From: Paraspadella gotoi
Taxonomy: Eukaryota; Animalia; Chaetognatha
NCBI GenBank assembly: GCA_051294375.1
Contig: CM119266.1
Coordinates: 19,355,657 to 19,419,656 of the forward strand
Direction of reading: 5' to 3'
Length of the DNA: 64,000 nucleotides
Both the position numbers and the translations under genes were made by a program. Below are positions 6,844 through 58,959 of the stretch, in pieces (within the stretch, counting starts at the first letter, position 1; the number at the start of each line of letters is the position of its first letter). The notes beneath the pieces were generated by a model that did not search any database, had not been told where the DNA came from, and worked only from the letters and a program-made list of their open reading frames with translations.

Positions 6844-18660
<11,817 letters not shown>

Positions 18661-29635: not shown

Positions 29636-32600
29636 TTTCTTTTCTTTCTTTCTTTCTTTCTTTCTCTATCTATCCCCTCTCCTTCACCTTTCTTGAAAGA
29701 AATAAGTATTATATTTCAATAATATTTTCGCTTCTTCGGTCTATATCAATCATGCTGCAGATTCACCGGGACTGATAAACCAAAACCCCCACAAAAGCCG
29801 TTGACCATGCCCGCCTTGACTCGCACGCTTCAGACTCCCTCCTCACCGCGGGTCGCTCGTTTTTAACTTACCTCTTTTTACTCTTCGCTTAAACTCGTCC
29901 ACCTTTCGCGTCAAAGGGAGGTCATTGCGGAATCCATAGGGCGGGGCGCACCCGTCGCAGGGCTCCTTCAACTTACGCTCGACTGTAGAAACATAGGGCA
30001 TCACCTGAGGTTTAAGGAGACAGATGAATATTGAATACAGATAGCAATGGACTCAAGCAGATGACCAAAGGGAAAAAATCAACGTTGTTGATGGAGTATT
30101 TATGAATATTAATTATGTTTAATTACGATTAAATATTGTTTACCGTTTTATCGACGAACGAGCCGAAGCCGAGACGAAAATCTTTCGTGATCTCTTTCAT
30201 CTTTTCAGACAAAACCGTACCTAATGAAAAAACAAAAGGGAAACGTAAATTTAAAACGAAATGACCAAAAATAGATTAGGAAACGAGAAAAACCTAATCT
30301 CGCGAAACAAAGCNNNNNNNNNNGCAGCTTTAAGTCTTGCTGCCACAATATCATATATACGACACAAAGTACGTATCCATCTGGTATAGTCTATATATTG
30401 TATAATTATCATCAAAACTTATTTTTATCCAATTTCTGAAAATAACCTTTTCATTCTCGCTCGTTAGCAGCCATGAAAGTTAAAGTGGTTCTTGTAGAGA
30501 GAGATATCTGTACTAGCATAGACTCTTTCATTCGTCTGGCCAAATGATCTGTGGCACAATCTCAGGTTTCTCGTGTTCATCTCGCCTCTCAACGGTTCTT
30601 AACTTAAGATGAAAGTCCCGGCTTTCTTTTTCAATAGCGCCCCAAAGCCGCCCTATTTCTGTTTAATTCTAATTCTCATATTTAACCATAATCTGTTATA
30701 AAACTCAGAACTTCAAATTTAGAACGAAATTGGTCGTTCTGGGAAAATAAGGCCGAAAGACCCTCATCTAAGACGCGTTTGGAATATTTCCTCACCCAAA
30801 TCGGCGAGCTTCTCCTTGTCGTCCTTCATGGATGCAGAGAGATCCATGAGGTAATACAGATCCACTGGATAGTCCTCCGCCTGACGGAATTTGATTTTGA
30901 ATTTTGCCGCGCTTTTTGGTCGAAGGCGAACGTCCACCTCCTGAGGGAACAACTGGACGGCGTTTTTGGCCCCGCCTTTAGAAGAGGCCAATGGCTTGGC
31001 CTTTCTGGGCGTCGTCTCGCTGCGAGCCTGGAGGGAAAGAAAGCTTTTATGATCAAGACGTGAAAAATATGATAATTAAAATAATTATTAAATAACTATT
31101 ATTAAGAGTCCTATTGAAATTGTGATCACTAATCATTAATACATGGCTAATCTCGTCCGCAGATAAGATTCATATAAACACATATGCCGTATGAATATCT
31201 TCTAACAAAAACGATCACAAGCGGAATCATACAACGAACGCCTGCCAGAGGGTAGACTCATTCAAACGCACGCAATGCACAAGATGACCCTTCGTACGAA
31301 ACCCTCTGATTATAGAGAGAAGAGAATCGTCCTCGAAAAGGGCGATAATAACAAAAGTATCAGATGAGACCTCCTGCTCTTATTCATTACCAATATAACT
31401 CTCATTTTCAATTTAATATGTTATAATGTTATACAGTAGACAAAGACGAAGAGGCACTGGCGGACGTAAATAAAATAAGAAAAAACAGGCAGATAGCAAT
31501 ACAAGACAAATATAAAACGCAACTGGCACAAGATCTAGAAAACTCGAAAACCGATATAACTACTCCTACACCGCCTATTTCGCTGCTCCCCCGTAATAGC
31601 GTGAACTAAAGCCTCATTCCTCGATCCTCTTCTACCGCGTGTTCACTCGACGCTCCCTCGTTCTCCCGTTTCCTCCATGTACCCAACTGGATTGAGTTCC
31701 TTGCATTTCAATCCAAGTTATTGCTTGTCGCGCCTGCGGCGTTCAAGCGTCGGCAGGACGAGGAGGGGTTGGATCGCCTCCGCATCTCGCGATCTTAAGC
31801 CGCGAAAAGTACACGTCAAAATTGGAGGAGTCGGCCGGACGACGAAAGCCGGATTTAAGAGGCCTGCAGCACGAACGGCGCGACGTGCCTCGGCGGAGAA
31901 ACCTCATTTCGCACGGCTGGCCCCCTGCTCCCTGCCCCGTTCCCGACTTGGACGAGTAGGTCTTGCCGGCTCTCCGCGGCTTGAGTGGACTCCATGCTGA
32001 CCTGACGACGTTATGCCAAAGAAAGCGAGGCCCGCCGCGGATCTTAAGGCGTGACACGGACTAAGCGATCGAATCGGGCGTGACAGAGAATCCCGTCGTT
32101 GCCGATGCGATTACAAATACGGTTGACTCTCGTATAAAAAAAATAGTCGAGCCGGTCTTGGGCGTTCGAACCATTCTAGTCTGTTTCACATGCCTCACCT
32201 TCTCTTTCCTTTATAATTAGTTTAAAGCTTTTAGTTTTGTCAAAGCGAGGCTCGTCCTTGGGTCCATCGCGCCAGTGAACAAGGCATCACTGAGGGTCGG
32301 AAACCCCAAAAGCCAACGGTGAGATGCCCCATCCAACGGGCATCAGAGGCAACCCGTCTGTTGCCATTAAGCCAATGGGATTGGACTGAACAATGGTGGA
32401 TGTATAGGTATTGTGAATAATCACCAACCAAAGATATATAGAAATTAGAAAAAAGCAGTTAAAAATAGGTTCATGAAGAAGGATGTTTAAATAAGCCATT
32501 ATTGATTCTCGTGGCATCGCTCTCGACCTTATCTTAAGACACACAGATCAGCTTCACCTGTTTGGGCGTTGCTGACCTTGTACTCGATGTCACAACCATT

Positions 32601-37405: not shown

Positions 37406-39161
37406 TTAATGTTTTAAATGACAACAGGGTGGAAAAGATGCGGGCCTCCGATTGCTCTTGAAGGATTTCCACAGAAAAGCGACAATCTTCCCCACAGTTT
37501 CCGGCCGAGATTCTAACATTTCCATCCACTCGGTGGAAGTCATGACTTCCTCGCCGAACTCGACGAAACAGTGGAGGCTTTCCCGAAGCAGCACCGGCGC
37601 TTTGAATTCCTCGGCCAATGCCAGCGACTTCAGACAGGTTGTCGGCTTTACTTCCCTGGCCAAATGCTCCTGCGCGAATCGAAAAAGATCCTGGTCGTGA
37701 TAGCGGTCGGCGAGGAGCAGCAGGTCTTCAGCGTGGGGCTCAACCGGAAAACAGGAGCCGCTGTAGGCGAAGGTTATCCACTTGCGTACGACATCTGGGG
37801 AGACATCCGGGAGGCAGAGACGTCGATCTCGCGTTTCGATCACGTCGTGACGAAACATTGCGCCGAGGACGGGCGAGGACGATGACAGGACGGATTTATG
37901 GACGAAAAACTCCGCGTAGTCAGAAATACTTGGGAGGGCGAAGGAAAACCAACGGGTTGTGAATTAAGTTAAAGACACCCATGTGCAAAAAACTCTCAAA
38001 AGACGCTCAATAAAAATATTTTTACTTAATATACATAAAAAAATAGTTTTTTAAAAGAGGAATTAATAAGTATAATTTTATTTTAATCGGTAAAGTTTTT
38101 TAAACAAAAAAAAATGAATTTTAGAAACATTACCCTGCTACTATTGCATTTTTTAATAATCTTAAAATTGTTAAATAAGGATCTGGGTTAATCTTGTTAT
38201 CCAGTTATCTTTCCGGATATCCAATATAATTATTATAAATTTATAAGTTTTTTAATATACTACAAAAAATGTAAAATATAAAAAAAGATTAGTCTAAATA
38301 AATCAATTTTTTTTTATATTCAGTTTAGCTTTAGAATATTTTATTTTAAAAAATTCTGCTCTTTTATGGATGGTCCAATTTTTAAAAAATTTATGCTCTT
38401 TTTTATCAATAAACTATAATTGATATATAAATTATAATTATGTTTTATGGATTCAAGTATATAGAATAATTTTTTTGTAATTGTTGTGCTATAAATATTA
38501 TTTTTATATTTATTAAATTATTAAATGCACTGAAATAGACTTCGTTTAATTAAAATTATATTACAAGCTTATTTCAAGACCCGTCGATCTGTGATCCGAC
38601 GAACGGCTGTTTTCCCGCGCAGACGCGAAAATCAAAATCGTCGCTTTCGATCGGATAACATTGATAGCGTCGAAGGTCATCGATCGCCTCTCGATCGTGG
38701 ATCCGAAGATGGCATTTAACGACGCAAGGTTCCGCGGAGGGCAACCGTGAACGACGGCAGAATCTCGTCCAACCCTGACTCTCTGAGAATCGAATGTATC
38801 GATGACGCGTGGACCGGACCGCGATCGGAACCGCGCCCTCCCTCGCGGGGTTGTCGTCGAAAAGGCGAAATTCGAGGTCGATGTTGAATTTGGCAGGAGG
38901 TTCCAAATGGTCCGGCGAGATGCTGTCGATATGAAGGCCGAAATCCTCTTCGTCGAGGGTCGCGCGGACGATCCACTTGGAGCGGAAGAAGCCGACTCTG
39001 ATGATAAATGGGTCCGTCTTCAGGGTCGTCGTCGTAGTCTCCGTCGCTCCGTAGACGCAAATAGTGACCACGTTTATTTCCCGGTTTTCTATCCTTTCAA
39101 CGACTAAGCGAGGGCGATGGGACGGCGCAGCGGCGTAAGCTGCTCCTGCTGACGCTGACAT
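37406..39161 (-). CDS. SPOP/TDPOZ-like MATH-BTB protein
   Basis: Exon 39161-38581 encodes a MATH-like beta domain (KWIVRA, QGWTRFCRRSRL, VVKCHLRI) and the BTB start (DFDFRV). Exon 37928-37406 encodes EFFVHKSVLSSSSPVLGAMFRHD...FAYSG...AEDLLLLADRY. The phase-2 GT-AG intron joins them in frame. Confidence 0.85.
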
Positions 39162-41945: not shown

Positions 41946-42931
41946 CTAAGCTCCGATGCGCCATTGGATGTAGACTTTCTTGAAGGAATCAAATCCAGCC
42001 AAGACGCCCGCCCCCCCACACCGCGGAGAATGTTGGCGCCGGCGCCCTTCATCATCGACATGAAACCCTCGTTCTTGAGGATATGCACGGCGCAATCGAT
42101 GGATCCCTTGTACTTGACCGCCGTGCCCGACGTCATCATCATGCGTCGACGAATTGTGTCGATGGGGTAGGACATCAAACCAGCCGTCACCGTGACAACC
42201 GTAACCCAAACAGAAGGACAGCAAGAGACCGGCATCGGGGCCGAGAAGGATCGGCTTCAGAGAATCGTAGAGACCGAAGTACATCCCTCGGTAAACGAAG
42301 ACTGCTTCCACTGCAGGGAGATGACGAACCCGCGGTAGAGGCCTTGGATGCCGTCCGACTTGAGGGTCTTGCTGTACACGTCGACGAGACCCTTGTACTG
42401 ACGTTCTCCGCCCTTAGCCTTGGCGTCATTGGCCAAACGCGTTCGGGCGAAATCCAGCGAATACACGAACATAAGAGACAAGGAACCGGCGCATCCTCCG
42501 GAGAGAATATTTGAACCGAACTTGGTCACGTAAGAAGCGTCCTTGGGGACGTTGAAAGCCGCCTTCACCTTGTCTTTGAACGCGAAATTGAGGGCCTGCG
42601 TCGGAAAGTATCGCAGGCAATTGGCCAAATTGCCGCGCCAAAGCGGGTAGACGCCCTCGGTTCTGATGACTCGGGTTGTGCAGTCGATCACACCCTGGGA
42701 GAGAAGGAGAGAAAAAAAAATTAAAAAATGGGAAGCAGGCTTTTTTCGGTTTAGGCTACGATTAATATTTACCTTATAAGGTTTGTCAAGACGACCTTGT
42801 TTGATCATTTCATCTTGATTTTGAACGAGCAGCTTGACTCTCTCGATAGGGGCGGCCGCCGTCTTAGATACGACAGCAGCAACGCCTGAGAGTGCGAAAT
42901 TCTCAGCGAATCCCAATTTCTTGTCGGCCAT
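41946..42931 (-). CDS. Mitochondrial ADP/ATP carrier (SLC25 ANT/AAC), with at least 3 apparent frameshifts
   Basis: Exons 42931-42773 and 42694-41946. Motifs [61 protein letters not shown] (ANT signature RRRMMM) and [10 protein letters not shown]. Frame changes occur near 42310, 42197 and 42012. Confidence 0.93.
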
Positions 42932-45900
42932 TTTAGAATGCGGTCTTTTCCCCTTAGAATCTGAAATGAAATAAAAAGCCGGTTAATCTTTGATATTTTG
43001 AATATGATTCAGTCAGTGATACAACAAGTTAGTCTGAACGTTATAGAAACGTTAACCGTCAAAGAAAAAAAGATTTTGACGATTTCTAATAATTCAAAAG
43101 ATTTTGAAGAACGCACGCCTTCCGAAGCACAAGAACAAAAACTAAATAAAAAAAGCGCAATATCGGAGTAGAAACATTTCTTTAGATGTAGGAAGATACA
43201 CGGAATTGTATTTAAGAAAAACCGAAAATGATTACGTCCTAGAAGAGCGTCCAAACCGTATCAAGAGCCCGCTCATATGAGGGACCATATTCAAATCGAG
43301 CTAACCTTGACTAATATTTCGAAGTTCGGCCTGCTCACCACTAGAGGCGATGGTGTCGCTCTCGTGGCTTTGAGAGTCAAACCAGTAACCATCACCCGCT
43401 CCACCAATAAAATCAAGAGTCTCGAGTCTCATCCAATCACAGACCGAAAGAGATATACGTTTGCTTCCTTATTGGTTCACTGACCGAATTACTCTGCACG
43501 AACGTTAGTCTCTTATTTAGCTCGTACTATGCAAGTATGCAATGCTTGCATGTGTGATTTGTGATCAGGAAAAACGAAGGAATAGTTTAATGTTCAGGAT
43601 ATCTTAGACGGTCCAAGATTTTATATAAGTTTGTCTCTATCCATGATCTATTTTTGTAATCGATTAATTGTAAATGAAAACTATAATATATACTTTTATA
43701 TTGGTTGAACCAATTTCATAGACTAGAGTTCTAATTTTTATAGTGGGGAAGACAACTGAAGACTTGGTAAATCATTTGTTGAATTTTCACTTAAGATACA
43801 AAGCTCTTAGGTCCTAGGATATGAAAAATTGCAAGATTATTTGTTTAACTATATTAGACTTTAATTTTTTTATTAAAATTTAAAAATAAATGTAAATTTT
43901 TTAATGATTTTTGTAGTACGTAAATAGCTATCCTTTAATTTACTTTCGAACAAAAAAGCATTCGATCAACTCAATGGTATTCAGTATTCACATTTACAGG
44001 ACCGATTTCAATCGGTTTTCTGTAATGAAAAATTTCGATGTTCTCGTGACGTAGGCGCAATGAACTCACTTTTTGGGAATGAAACCCCCCAAAAAACTAG
44101 CCATAATATGGCCTCGTTTGAATACATATTTGTTCACCATTATTTCCCACTTTTAGCGTTTTTTTTTATTTTTGCCTTTTTCTTATTACGGAAATAAGAA
44201 ATTTGAAACTCGATAAAAATTATTTCGAAATATACTGTATGCCCACTTTTACTATCAATTTTACAACTAATTTACATGACATTAAAATCTATTTTTTATT
44301 TTTCTTTTCTTTTCCGACCCATGAGTTTTTCACGTGCCCTCCTCAGATCCCCTCGTCTTTGTGGAGGGTGTCCACTGTCCAGTGTTCAGTGTCCGTCCAC
44401 CGCTCTACTCACCCCTACCCCGGACGGACAGGCTAATCAGCAGAATGATAAGCCGCGACTAAAATTTAAGGTTCACTATTGAAATCTGCACTTCCCATAT
44501 CAATCTTTTTTCATTTTTGTATAAAATCAATTCAAACTTCAAAGTTTTGTGAAATGTTTGTGTAAGACTTAGGGACGGACAAATAATACGGGTTTTGTCC
44601 TAATGTCGTCGTATTCGTGGAGATGTTTACTCAAGAGTCATGTCAACCTCACACCCCTGATTAAATATAAAGTCGGGATTAGCTGAGTTTTTACTGAAGC
44701 CATCGATTTGTTATCGCTCAATCTTTTCTGAAATTATTCTAATTATAATTATTATGTCTATTTCAAATGCACAAGACAGCCTTCAAAAACGTATAGTTCC
44801 TCTCTCGAAAGTACAACTACTTCGATTTTAGTTTTACAACTTCACCGAATTCATTCATGTTTTGTCAATCCGTCGAGGTCTCGAGGGGCTTGGCTTCGCC
44901 CGCTGAAGGAGATTCGATCGCCCAGTTTCCCCCCAAATCGAGAAGAACCGAAGACGAAACGAAAGGAAGAAAATTGACCTTCCGTGTAGCGGGAAAACAA
45001 GACCAACTAATTAACTCAGTTATTTCGTATAATTTTCTTACGATCCAAAAAAAAAACCCAACTTTTTTCTGCGTCGTTTGTTACTGTCAAACTTTTTAAC
45101 AATTCTAATTTGCGTATCGTTTAAATTTTAATCTCGTCATCAATCGTCTTTTTGGCGAATTGCTTTGTTCGGGCGTGCGTCGAGAATTCAAAGATTTTTC
45201 AATTCATGATGGTCACGTCGTGTGTTTAAAAAATTCTACATCTTCTAATTTTTGTATAAAACAATTCAGAAATGGAATAAAAACTATCGAAATTTCTTAA
45301 TCTTTCAAGAAAAAAAATAATTTTTACACACTTAACATGTATTTTTAAACCCCGCTAAAACCAAATAAACAACAGTATATTGATTTTTCCTATTTATTTT
45401 AAAAGTTATTACTCGACGAATTCCTTAGTTTTTTTCATTGACTTAGATTTTACATATTGAGCAGACGCGACTGAAATCGAACTCCTCATTTCATTTCTTG
45501 CTCACTATCGTTCTCTCGCGTTATCTTTGGCTCTCGCTCTCCCTCTTTGGCTCTCGCTCTCCCTCTTTCGCTCTCTACTCGTTCTAACTCAACTTCTACC
45601 TTCTTCCAATGGAGGTGAAAAAAAGATGCTCCCGTTTTATTTTATCGAACATTTCGTATTCGAGAATCCAGACAAACAAATCAACTTGAAACAACAACTA
45701 CTAACCGACAACATTCGTTGTATGGAGCAATTATTTAGTAATTTCGAAAATAATTTACGAAAAAATTTTTGACAATGTTTTACGTACTTCAATAAGTTTT
45801 TAATTTTTTTAGTTTTTTATTTTTAATTTTTTTACTTCTCATTAAAATTATATTTTTAGTTCTCCCGAATCTACGGTTTATTTTTCATTATATTATATTG

Positions 45901-46310: not shown

Positions 46311-46497
46311 GGGAGGTTATGGAGAGCGAGTAAGTATGAGAGAGAAACGGATTAGTAGAAAAATTCTCAATTCTCATGTTAACGAGATTGTTTTTTTTGT
46401 TTTTTTTTTAATCTTCAGAAGCGTGCATTGGAAATCCGAGACAATCTCCCCGTAGGCGATATCTCCATTCCAACGTCTTCAACATTCCTCCACCGTC

Positions 46498-47658
46498 ATG
46501 TTGCCGTCATGCCTTCGCTCCCATTGGCGACCTTTGACTCGTGCATCGGCGCTCATGTGCTTTCTCATCGCCACAGTGGCTCTTTTCCAAACCAACGTCA
46601 TCCCCACAGTGCAACGCGGGTTTTTTTGCGACGACCAGACGATCCGTTATCCCTATCATTACTCCACATTCCCGACGTGGCTCCTCGTCGTGGTTTTCAT
46701 GGTTGTCCCTGACCTCATCGTCGCGGGAGTGGAATTTTGCTACGCTCGAAACTATGCAAATCTCTTTTACTGTTTGGGACATTTTAAACTCTCCATCTCG
46801 ATGTCGACCATTTTAACGGATGTCGTCAAGTGCGTCGTGGGACGGTTACGACCGCACTTTATCGCCGTCTGTGGCCCGGATGTTCTTCTCAATATGACCT
46901 GCGACGCAGAAACCTCATTGCTCTACATTCTTGAATATAATTGTACGAATCCGCTTCATCTTGATCCGGATGTAATAGTCGAAGCTCACAAATCATTTCC
47001 CTCTGGTAAATAATTGAAAGACGCAACCTCCATTTTCTTTTTTAATTGTTAACGGTTTACTGGAAAAAAATTATTCATTAATTGATAAGATAAAGAAATT
47101 AATTAATAGTCTTCGTCATTCCGACGCGACCTGGGACTCGATATTCAAATAGTTAGTTTAAATGAGTTTTGTACCGATGTTTCAAAGTTACATTAGCATT
47201 GATTCAATTAACAAATTTGTAATTAAATTAACGAAATCACCAACTGCTTTTTTTTTCGCCCCCTCGTTTTCTCAACCCGTGGTCTTCGCCTCTCCCATTC
47301 GAAAGGTCACGCTAGCCTCGCTATGTGTAGCGCCGTCTTCGTGACCCTCTACGTCTGGCGCCGGGCGCCCTCTCAGCCCCCTCATCTCGGGCGCCTCTTT
47401 CTCGTCTTTCTCATTTTGGTTGGCGCCGGCGCCGTCTGCGGGTCACGCGTCATGGACTACAAACATCACGGAGAGGACGTGGCCTTTGGATTTGTCATCG
47501 GCAGCGTCGTCGCCTTCACATCCGGTTATGTTTGGTGGGGAGCGATGGAGTCACTTCGATTCGAAGATGACGACGACAGCGACAAAAGTGGCGCCGGTGA
47601 CTCGAACAATGTCACAAACATCGTCGAACGCAAACCCCTCACCGAGTACCGCGTTTGA
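46498..47658 (+). CDS. Phospholipid phosphatase (PAP2/LPP, wunen-like)
   Basis: Exons 46498-47005 and 47306-47658. Contains QRGFFCDDQTIRYPY and catalytic motifs C1 KCVVGRLRPHF, C2 SFPSGH (across the splice) and C3 SRVMDYKHHGED. Confidence 0.93.
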
Positions 47659-54979: not shown

Positions 54980-56201
54980 TGTGGCAGCAAGACTTAAAGC
55001 TGCCTCACTGCTGTCCGTACTCCAGCCTCGTCTCAATGGCTGAGCAGGCTAAATCATCTCATTCCATCCGTGCGTCCCGGGTTCAATCCCTGGGTATCCC
55101 GGTTCTGGCTTAAATGTGATGGTGCCGGTATAAACATGCCAGTGACAGGAGGCGGTCACTGAGGGTCCGCAGCCCCTACGCCAGTTGGTGAGATACCCCG
55201 CGCCCCGGGTATCACAGGCTATCCTCCCGTTGCCATAAGTGGTGAGCCCTACTCTCGAACACGCAACCGCTGCGCACCGTGCGCCCACGCTAACGTGCTT
55301 AGGGTATGCATATCACGCCTATGCCCTACTTCTCTGGTAACGCTCCAGACTGCTCGCTCGCTCGCCCACTCGCTCTCACTATGGCAATGAGATCAAAACC
55401 TTCTCTCAGACATCTCCTCAGGATTGAGGCCCCTGTGGAGAAGTCTGGTGGGGGGATCCTGTGGCAGCAAGACTTAAAGCTGCTCACTGCTGTCCGTCCT
55501 CAGCCTCTGTCTCAATGGCTGAGCAGGCTAAATCATCTCATTCCATCCGTGCGTCCCGGTTCAATCCCTGGGTATCCCGGTTCTGGCTTAAATGTGACGG
55601 TGCCGGTATAAACATGCCAGTGACAGGAGGCGGTCACTGAGGGTCCGCAGCCCCTACGCCAGTTGGTGAGATACCCCGCGCCCCGGGTATCACAGGCTAT
55701 TCTCCCGTTGCCATAAGTGGTGAGCCCTACTATCGAACACGCAACCTTCTCAGGGTACGCTACGACAAACGCCTATGCCCTGCCGACTTCGGGTACGCTA
55801 CAACAAACGCCTATGCCCCTGGGTACGCTACGACAAACGCCTATGCCCCCACAACTCGCGCTCTCTCTCTCTCTCCCACTATGGTAACAGTCTTGTCAGA
55901 CACCTCTCAGGCTTGAGGAACCTGAGTGATGTCTTGGCCCGGGGATCCTGTGGCGGTATATTCACACCGCTCACGTCCACCATCCGTCAGCCAAATCCAT
56001 TGGCTCAGAGGGGAACACACATCCCAGGTGTAGTGTTCCATCCACAGTCCTAACGACTTCCCTCTGCGTTGGCAAAGCGAGACCGTCCTAGGGTAACCGC
56101 GCCAGTGACTGGAGGCGTCACTGAGGGTCGGAAGCCCCCAAAGCCAACAGTGAGATGCCCCATCCCAATGGGCATCACAGGCAACCCGGCTGTTGCCAAT
56201 A
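54980..56201 (+). mobile_element. Tandem TRIM-like non-autonomous LTR element: LTR-A / internal / LTR-A / internal / LTR-B
   Basis: LTRs at 54980-55237, 55460-55715 and 55949-~56201 (TGTGGC...TGCCATA/GCCAATA). PBS-like TGGTGAGCCC at 55240 and 55718. Purine tracts GGTGGGGGGA (55447) and GGGGA (55941) each precede TCC and the next LTR. No coding capacity. Confidence 0.75.
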
Positions 56202-57187
56202 AAAGCCTTTATATATTTACGCTGCCATTTTGCTGCATAATCGAGTAACAGTGGCTTAGAAATTCATAATAAGGTTTTAGGTGTCCAACCATGGAGCTAC
56301 AATTCATGCTACATTTTTCAGCGTTCAACTTAGCAGTAATCGTGAATTAGAGAGTAGTCTTCATCGGAGCTAAAGAATTGGATGGTTGTTATTAGATTAA
56401 TTTAAAAAAAAACCCTATTGCAAATCCGGGCGAGATACTAGAAAATCCCTGATTATATTTCCATATAAAAAGACAAAGGTCTGTTGTGATTTATGACGAA
56501 ACGGAGTTAAGGAGTGATATTGAATAAGTTAAGCTAATAAGTATAATAAACATGATGATTAATAGCTACTTAACCTCAACTGTTTAAGCGATTAAGATTA
56601 TGAAATTGGCCAAACACAATGAGTTTCTCTGTTCTTTCAAATGACAACGAATGGATTATTTCTAACGCCCGGGCTGCGACTGTTGCTCAATTTTTTTTAC
56701 TTTACCCGATGAACTTAGATAAGATTCTACTAGTATTTAAAGTTGCTTATTCTTTTTTTTTTACTTCAGACTTTTTTTAACTTTCTTTTAACCTGGATAT
56801 ATATTAAAAAAGATAAATTATCAATGAAGCGAACGCGTTCGGTAAAATATCGCTTTCGCGTTCAATCCCATTACACCCAATTTTCTATCGCTTTCGCTTC
56901 TGCAAGAAATCTGGCGCATCCATTGTGTACGCTTTCAGTACCCGGATCGTTTCTGTATCTGACAGAGACTTCAATAATACATCTCCCCATTGATTCCAGC
57001 CTCGTTGTCATTCTCTTTACCGCCACCTCTTGACATAACCATTAACCAATTAACCATTAACCATTCACCTCTACCTTCTCAGCTGCTTTTTCTCCCACGA
57101 TTTTTTTTTTTGCTTTGAAGAAAAAAGGATATTTAAGGGAACAAAAATGAAACTCGAAATCCGTCGGAAAAATAAAATCCCCTCGAG

Positions 57188-58959
<1,772 letters not shown>

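Follow-up and report, generated by a model that had tools for sequence, protein, structure and literature searches.

Introduction

Miniature terminal-repeat retrotransposons (TRIMs) with tRNA-like long terminal repeats (LTRs) were named Helenus by Kojima 2024 (PMC10886601), who grouped them with Cassandra and Ajax as TRIMp3; in the sections of that paper drawn on here, they are known from fungi, one plant and six animal phyla. Here, we describe an LTR array, probably of this kind, at positions 54980-56198 of a 64,000-nt stretch of the chaetognath Paraspadella gotoi (assembly GCA_051294375.1, contig CM119266.1, positions 19,355,657 to 19,419,656 of the forward strand), which was analysed as a whole and is called the window below. 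The same sections report 40 Helenus families with 4-bp duplications of the target site (TSDs) from chalcidoid and cynipid wasps, primer-binding sites (PBSs) for tRNA-Lys, Leu, Trp or Arg in hymenopteran Helenus, and a box A with TRGCY and YGG in most Helenus LTRs. Gypsy elements are proposed there as the partners of Helenus, including Gypsy-32_NVi for tRNA-Trp, and the use of RNA polymerase III (Pol III) is given as validated for Cassandra only, not for Helenus.

Three further groups of short retroelements are relevant. In Cassandra, tandem arrays sharing LTRs occur, according to the part of PMC7215508 cited here. PbTRIM of ants has LTRs of 152-184 bp, a PBS for tRNA-Leu and a TATAAA in U3, as described in the cited part of Zhou and Cahan 2012 (PMC3532108). 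LTR retrozymes are presented as mainly a plant feature in the excerpts used from two sources (PMC7229834; bioRxiv 10.64898/2026.07.22.740005), which describe the metazoan type I hammerhead repeats, or non-LTR retrozymes, as having no LTRs, PBS or polypurine tract (PPT).

Results

A head-to-tail LTR array with TRIM anatomy

The element at 54980-56198 is a head-to-tail array in the order LTR, internal region, LTR, internal region, LTR, and it has the anatomy of a TRIM (Table 1). Direct terminal repeats with TG..CA ends are present in the form of three LTRs of 250-256 bp, all three of which start with TGTGG and end with TTGCCA, and the two upstream ones, A1 and A2 (A-type), are 97.3% identical over 291 columns in BLAST. 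Each downstream LTR is preceded by a G-rich tract (GGTGGGGGGATCC before LTR A2 and CCCGGGGATCC before LTR B), which provides a PPT before the 3′ LTR, the CGGGGA before LTR B being weaker than the GGTGGGGGGA before LTR A2. The LTR-internal-LTR unit is short (734 bp) and non-coding: 15 stop-to-stop frames of at least 50 amino acids (aa) overlap the element, and no Pfam family was found in the six longest of them. Taken with the PBS and the LTR sequences described below, the locus is probably best explained as a non-coding TRIM of the Helenus/TRIMp3 kind, primed by tRNA-Trp and arranged in tandem, with a 3′ unit that is chimeric between an A-type and a B-type subfamily.

The two internal regions are alike at their ends, with 32 of the first 33 nt identical and 78.7% identity over the last 61 nt, and differ in the middle, where internal region 2 carries three copies of a 28-nt unit; a single copy related to this unit lies in internal region 1, near 55300-55330. 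The downstream LTR, B, matches the A-type LTR at 76% identity in BLAST, limited to the 3′ 100 nt, and its 5′ 150 nt have no BLAST match to the A-type LTR. The 3′ unit has the appearance of a product of recombination between the A-type and a divergent B-type subfamily.

An earlier note on this DNA, made from its letters, had proposed the same succession of three LTRs with PBS, internal region and PPT, and we found these elements at the places it gave, with LTR lengths corrected from 258, 256 and about 253 bp to 256, 254 and 250 bp. Hallmarks of short interspersed nuclear elements (SINEs) had been named there as grounds for abandoning the proposal. Membership among tRNA-derived SINEs was rejected, given that LTRs, PBS and PPT are present and that no A-rich or simple-repeat tail follows 3′ of 56198.

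A tRNA-Trp primer-binding site and an antisense tRNA relic

The PBS (TGGTGAGCCCTAC) begins 4 nt 3′ of both LTR A1 and LTR A2. It was compared by eye with an antisense oligonucleotide for a human tRNA-Trp-derived suppressor tRNA (PMC6379413) and with the 3′ end of Apis mellifera tRNA-Trp (Fig. S2 of PMC10886601), a reference that may differ from the host tRNA-Trp, and it agrees with the tRNA-Trp complement of both at 11 of the first 13 positions. By this comparison, a PBS complementary to a tRNA 3′ end stands just after the 5′ LTR, and the tRNA match that the earlier note had called for is tRNA-Trp. About three bases are missing after the 13-base match.

Complementarity to tRNA-Trp is also found further downstream. 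In internal region 2, the exact 16-mer GAACACGCAACCTTCT complements tRNA-Trp from the T-loop across the 5′ T-stem strand into the variable region (by eye). Internal region 1 has exactly the first 12 of these 16 bases (GAACACGCAACC), lacks the anticodon arm, and then agrees with the D-arm complement at 17 of 19 positions in GCGCACCGTGCGCCCACG (by eye). The Rfam search of the PBS region alone returned no tRNA match, and a scan of viral contigs with the 16-mer shared with tRNA-Trp gave 16 loci, none of them a tRNA. By these comparisons, the element carries its primer tRNA in antisense, nearly complete and in a decayed state, which would be either the product of plus-strand read-through of the primer tRNA or an extended primer-binding surface. 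The relic is more damaged in the part nearest the tRNA 3′ end than in the T-arm part, and this unevenness may point to the T-arm part being under selection or to an acceptor stem of another sequence in the host tRNA-Trp.

The position of the relic also allows the locus to be read in the opposite direction, not as an LTR element but as a minus-strand tandem of a SINE-like unit consisting of a tRNA-Trp-derived head and antisense U5-R, as in strong-stop complementary DNA. A strong-stop model exists for the origin of SINEs, and on the minus strand the reverse-complemented LTR comes immediately after the tRNA-Trp-like sequence, which is the order of minus-strand strong-stop DNA (by eye). The array nevertheless has exact TG..CA boundaries, a G-rich tract directly before each downstream LTR and an LTR at both ends, and the B-type LTR fragments elsewhere in the window end in TTGCCA too; the tRNA-Trp relic, for its part, has no anticodon arm and lacks most of the 3′ T-stem strand, matches no tRNA model and comes with no tail. 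A SINE-like origin of this kind is therefore highly improbable.

A tRNA-like module in the A-type LTRs and its partial absence from the B-type

Returning to the array as a tRNA-Trp-primed TRIM, its A-type LTRs contain a box A-like sequence and a complete T-arm-like hairpin that includes a box B, both situated where the earlier note had reported them. The T-stem of LTR A2 has one G fewer, resulting in a C·T mismatch, and the missing G could be a homopolymer error of the draft assembly. Upon folding of the tRNA-like stretch, the T-arm hairpin was the sole recognisable part.

The frequency of such a module by chance was evaluated in 3 Mb of first-order Markov sequence of the window's composition, scanned on both strands, with patterns that were drawn up after viewing the sequence, so that the true odds are less extreme than the counts. 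Box B alone (GGTTCRANNCC) occurred 27 times in the simulated 3 Mb, that is 0.56 per window (calculated expectation, 0.83 per window). When a 5-bp T-stem was required in addition, the count was two; when a box A was required 25-65 nt upstream of box B, it was zero, as it was for box A, box B and T-stem together. A repeat simulation with the element's own composition gave 27, 1, 0 and 0, in the same order. This indicates that box B alone is at chance level, while the combination of box A, box B and T-stem is above chance. On the strength of that combination, the origin of the LTR stretch from a tRNA or a SINE is the reasonable reading.

The two subfamilies differ in how much of the module they have. 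The box A trait TRGCY of Helenus is present in both, as TGGCT, and a GGTTC box B, spaced from box A as in tRNAs, is found in both A-type LTRs and in neither of the two B-type copies covering the region. The earlier note had marked two strings in LTR B as the counterparts of the boxes, TGGCTCAGAGGG (56001) and GTTCCATCC (56035), and both are present. In the MAFFT alignment of all LTR copies, the former aligns with the box A-like sequence of the A-type; GTTCCATCC aligns to the A-type ATTCCATCC (55069-55077) and is not the counterpart of box B, because it falls upstream of the T-arm. A box A-like sequence is thus common to both subfamilies and box B is confined to the A-type, and the non-conservation of the boxes, which had been put forward as a reason to give up the promoter reading, applies to one box of the two. 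The occurrence in one window of an A-type with box A and T-arm and a B-type with box A only offers a natural comparison for asking whether box B of Helenus is under selection.

Hairpins shared by the LTR types and ribozyme candidates

Structured segments were found at the 5′ end and in the 3′ half of the LTRs (Table 1). In the hairpin at the LTR 5′ end, two pairs are altered on both sides between the A-type and the B-type (by eye). A consensus fold of four LTR 3′ halves gave three simple hairpins, the third of which is GATACCC/GGGTATC in the A-type (55192-55213) and GATGCCC/GGGCATC in the B-type (56157-56180), an AU to GC compensatory change on both sides in two of the four sequences.

Part of this domain raises the possibility of a ribozyme-bearing, retrozyme-like LTR element, whose hairpin domain (55127-55197) would act as a self-cleaving RNA, either twister-like or derived from a hammerhead, and set free RNA of unit length. 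Twister-P1 is the best Rfam match in both LTR types, and at LTR position 180 the element has CTGAGGGTCC, where the LTRs of the Trp-primed cynipid Helenus-2 have the hammerhead core CTGATGAGTCC (by eye). The twister scores, however, lie far below the gathering score (Table 1), with E-values from 0.31 (261-nt search) to 3.5 (3 kb); two P2 pairs are non-standard, the UAAA and GAGGG of the twister consensus are unmatched, and the supposed 3′ strand of P1 (AUACC) sits in the A/B-conserved hairpin with the compensatory change. A hammerhead would need an A after CUGA-G-G, where a G stands, and no GAAA follows the second hairpin. A self-cleaving LTR thus seems hardly credible.

Rfam detected no family at gathering score anywhere in the window. 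The twister ribozyme (RF03160) was rejected as a chance resemblance of the two-hairpin domain, on account of the sub-gathering scores and the failure of P2, UAAA and GAGGG. Neither a hammerhead family of Rfam nor a CUGANGA...GAAA motif was found in the window, and membership among LTR retrozymes, which have a type III hammerhead, was rejected on these two negatives.

A separate observation concerns the published Helenus-2_SyJa and Helenus-2_SyUm, whose LTR consensus sequences (DataS1 of PMC10886601) contain, by eye, a complete type III hammerhead. Located downstream of the tRNA-like part, it is made up of GUC followed by a stem I hairpin AAGGCA/TGCCTT, then CUGAUGA, a stem II GUCC/GGAC, GAAAC and a 6-bp stem III. 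SyJa and SyUm have the same sequence here, while other LTR parts differ between the two. In the main text of PMC10886601, 'hammerhead' and 'ribozyme' occur only in the title of a cited reference, and retrozymes are mentioned once, as a separate group. No paper on LTR-type retrozymes in insects was among those listed by our literature searches, and the Helenus-2 hammerhead, if true, would be an LTR-type retrozyme in an animal. A more far-reaching proposal would make the Trp-primed Helenus an animal lineage of LTR retrozymes, in which Helenus-2 combines a tRNA-type Pol III promoter with an intact type III hammerhead, and the family in the window is a relative whose hammerhead has decayed to CUGA-GG-GUCC at the same LTR position and which has kept a near-whole antisense primer tRNA as an extended primer-binding surface; we regard this as improbable.

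Propagation of the element and the choice of polymerase

If the array is a tandem TRIM of the Helenus kind, a transcript extending from the 5′ LTR into the 3′ LTR would enter particles and serve as template for reverse transcription from a tRNA-Trp primer, with the proteins supplied by an autonomous element elsewhere in the genome, probably of Gypsy type. The complementarity to the T-arm and D-arm would have been left by read-through of the primer during plus-strand synthesis, or would serve as an extended primer-binding surface. The array itself may have arisen through unequal or ectopic recombination, and its 3′ unit would then be a chimera of the A-type and the divergent B-type.

Several observations weigh against this explanation. 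Within the first 13 bases of the PBS there are two mismatches, counted against the Apis and human tRNA-Trp ends and not against the host tRNA. The YGG of the Helenus box A is absent, the A-type having AGG and the B-type AGG or GGG. In the LTR, ARAGORN found no tRNA down to the 80% threshold (at 70%, a forced 'tRNA-Met' came with three calls that are evidently false), and the Rfam tRNA model gave nothing at E≤10, even with 261 nt searched; a tRNA gene in the LTR was rejected on these two negatives. The T-arm columns of both B-type copies covering the stretch read TCCACAGTCCTAA, with no GGTTC, and the sole two A-type copies that could show the module are tandem neighbours and supply no independent evidence of its conservation. 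The array is flanked by AAGC and ATAA, which differ and form no TSD. An autonomous partner was absent from the window, where the 22 long frames scanned held host domains only (FHA, trypsin, carrier, BTB and PAP2, and a kinase match below the Pfam threshold); the autonomous element with matching termini and PBS that the earlier note had envisaged was accordingly not among them. Finally, the TATAAA at 55129 in the A-type LTR would suit an RNA polymerase II (Pol II) promoter, and the absence of T-runs described below has a chance probability of about 0.1 by our own arithmetic.

Two of these points can be qualified. The flank comparison says little on TSDs, because the outer LTRs belong to different subfamilies and the array is not a single insertion. 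Recognition by a tRNA search, a Helenus trait for which the cited sections of PMC10886601 report the use of Censor and tRNAscan-SE, failed here with ARAGORN and the Rfam tRNA model, and we treated this failure as a sign of decay and not as exclusion from Helenus, because most Helenus are reported in those sections as not predicted to be functional tRNAs.

With regard to the polymerase, the + strand is free of T-runs of four or longer across the 1222 bp from 54980 to 56201, the first such run being at 56228, and a Pol III transcript could therefore cross the element. Within the same interval, AAAA occurs once, at 55395, in a locus that is otherwise AT-rich. A further point for Pol III is that the boxes and a clean T-arm have outlasted the rest of the tRNA shape. 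On these sequence features, Pol III transcription of the element is a real possibility that falls somewhat short of an even chance.

The same features bear on the view that this is an ordinary Pol II-driven TRIM, whose transcripts start downstream of the TATAAA and in whose LTR the tRNA-like piece is a passenger, the relic of an old SINE or tRNA insertion. The TATAAA would then play the part it has in the U3 of the ant PbTRIM, as described in the cited part of that report; the loss of the T-arm from the B-type subfamily and the failure of every tRNA model to recognise the module are in line with a passenger, and so is the LTR without a Pol III terminator, unlike that of Cassandra as described in the source cited. 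Yet a box A and a perfect T-arm have been kept where the acceptor and anticodon parts have become unrecognisable, as one would expect were the promoter boxes alone important; the B-type LTR is without the TATAAA as well; and the 1222 bp are uninterrupted by any T4 run. We hold this view to be unlikely, though well worth keeping in mind.

Family copies and other features of the window

The element has no other complete copy within the window. Three partial LTRs of the family were found (Table 1), and the 1641 N of assembly gaps in the window (11200-12100, 30315-30324 and elsewhere) include two that cut copies of the element family, so that its repeats seem to break the assembly. A metagenome scan with a 16-base LTR pattern gave 119 loci, all of them chance matches, and the longest BLAST match to the element among them was 27 nt. 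Several host genes share the window, and by these genes (trypsin, ADP/ATP carrier, BTB, PAP2 and FHA) the host is an animal. For the 1391-aa frame with an FHA domain, a search at E≤1e-20 of the proteins of 765-2435 aa in a large protein collection found no homologue, and a protein atlas returned bacterial FHA clusters only, at score 0.75.

Table 1. Positions of the array, its parts, related LTR copies and neighbouring genes in the window.
Feature	Position	Strand	Remarks
LTR A1	54980-55235	+	256 bp, TG..CA ends
LTR 5′-end hairpin, A-type	54983-55004	+	GGCAGC/GCTGCC, 10-nt loop; z −1.9
Box A-like sequence	55037-55048	+	TGGCTGAGCAGG; aligns with TGGCTCAGAGGG of the B-type LTR (MAFFT)
T-arm-like hairpin	55077-55093	+	CCGGG-TTCAATC-CCTGG; contains box B GGTTCAATCCC at 55080-55090
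Twister-P1 weak match	55127-55197		17.6 bits (Rfam, gathering score 67.2)
TATAAA	55129-55134	+	possible Pol II TATA box (putative function); absent from the B-type LTR
Three hairpins	55140-55213	+	CAGTGAC/GTCACTG, GGGT/GCCC, GATACCC/GGGTATC; kept in A- and B-type LTRs
Internal region 1	55236-55459	+	224 bp, non-coding
PBS and antisense tRNA-Trp relic, internal region 1	55240-55289	+	TGGTGAGCCCTAC; GAACACGCAACC (55257-55268); D-arm complement GCGCACCGTGCGCCCACG (55272-55289)
Polypurine-like G-rich tract	55447-55456	+	GGTGGGGGGA; 3 nt 5′ of LTR A2
LTR A2	55460-55713	+	254 bp
Twister-P1 weak match	55605-55675		17.6 bits (Rfam, gathering score 67.2)
Internal region 2	55714-55948	+	235 bp
PBS and antisense tRNA-Trp relic, internal region 2	55718-55750	+	exact 16-mer GAACACGCAACCTTCT at 55735-55750
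28-nt unit, three copies	55753-55848	+	GGGTACGCTACGACAAACGCCTATGCCC; in internal region 2
LTR B	55949-56198	+	250 bp; divergent subfamily without T-arm and without TATAAA
LTR 5′-end hairpin, B-type	55952-55971	+	GGCGGT/ACCGCT; z −3.1
Twister-P1 weak match	56100-56143		15.2 bits (Rfam, gathering score 67.2)
B-type LTR, 3′ part	11033-11199	−	84.8% over 158 (BLAST); cut by an N gap
Third A-type LTR, first 24 nt	30324-30347	−	beside a 10-N gap; flank ATAT
B-type LTR fragment, 5′-truncated	32237-32367	+	85.2% over 135 (BLAST)
Open frame of 1391 aa	12222-16397	−	one FHA domain (E 1.5e-14)
BTB domain	37406-37963	−	
ADP/ATP carrier exon	42257-42982	−	best identity 80%
PAP2 phosphatase exons	46456-47658	+	
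Trypsin-like protease	58091-58654	+	

Discussion

The known systems are compared here as the cited parts of the respective papers describe them. PbTRIM is an animal TRIM, as is the chaetognath element, and both have TG..CA LTRs with a TATAAA inside, as well as a PBS and a PPT. The AT-rich targets of PbTRIM find a parallel in the one A-type LTR end that abuts ATAT; a tRNA-like LTR module is not described for PbTRIM in the part of the report cited, and membership was rejected on the LTRs of 250-256 bp and the PBS for tRNA-Trp. Plant LTR retrozymes (Cervera et al. 2016) are likewise non-coding LTR elements that have both PBS and PPT and whose LTR contains a structured RNA domain, and differ in that each retrozyme LTR has a working type III hammerhead, of which none was found here.

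Downstream of the PBS, the element resembles a more distant system. In yeast Ty1, the primer is the initiator tRNA-Met, a short PBS is followed by sequence that can pair with the T-arm and D-arm of that primer, and the extended contacts have been tested genetically. Complementarity to the T-arm and D-arm of the primer downstream of the PBS is common to both elements; in the one described here, the tRNA is tRNA-Trp, the pairing is read from sequence alone, and it may be a read-through relic. In either case, the antisense tRNA-Trp relic would record primer read-through or extended primer contact in an animal TRIM.

Cassandra and the present element are both non-autonomous LTR elements in which the LTR promoter appears to have been taken from a small RNA gene. 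Cassandra uses a 5S-derived part with a terminator, and its transcription starts and ends inside that part, whereas the module here is tRNA-type and the LTR has no T-run. Rfam found no 5S match in the element or the window, and membership in Cassandra was rejected for want of 5S rRNA-derived sequence in the LTR. The earlier note had seen in the locus a tRNA-type analogue of Cassandra, a hybrid of SINE and LTR element. A TRIM with a box A/B module is indeed what was found, but its novelty does not stand, as that design is Helenus (PMC10886601).

The design of the element is already published in the sections cited from PMC10886601, and by that description the element would be a further family of the Helenus kind, which adds little beyond one more family of a class named in 2024. 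By its k-mers and dimensions, it is not among the listed Helenus families: 11 of 12 element k-mers (7-13 nt) were absent from DataS1 of PMC10886601, in a search that could miss k-mers across FASTA line ends; the sole match, the 7-mer gttgcca in a fungal LTR, looks like chance; the k-mer gaacacgc of the tRNA-Trp relic had no occurrence in the supplement; and Table S1 has no family with an LTR of about 256 bp and an internal region of about 225-235 bp. The closest layout is that of Helenus-2_SyJa and Helenus-2_SyUm (Synergus japonicus and S. umbraculus), which have a 277-bp LTR and a tRNA-Trp PBS. Compared by eye with Helenus-2_SyJa, the LTR has the same TGTGG start and the same CGTCT followed by ATGGCT(C/G)AGC, with ATGGCT 40 nt upstream of CCCGGGTTC in both and no T-run after the tRNA-like part in either, while only 8 of the 30 nt separating the boxes agree, no more than expected by chance. 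These comparisons show a shared design and not necessarily a close kinship. Overall, the element is like Helenus in being a short LTR element that does not code for protein, has both PBS and PPT, and holds in its LTR a tRNA-like stretch with box A and box B, and it differs from Helenus, as there described, in a more decayed tRNA-like part, a box A with AGG and not YGG, a divergent subfamily without box B, and a long antisense tRNA-Trp relic in the internal region.

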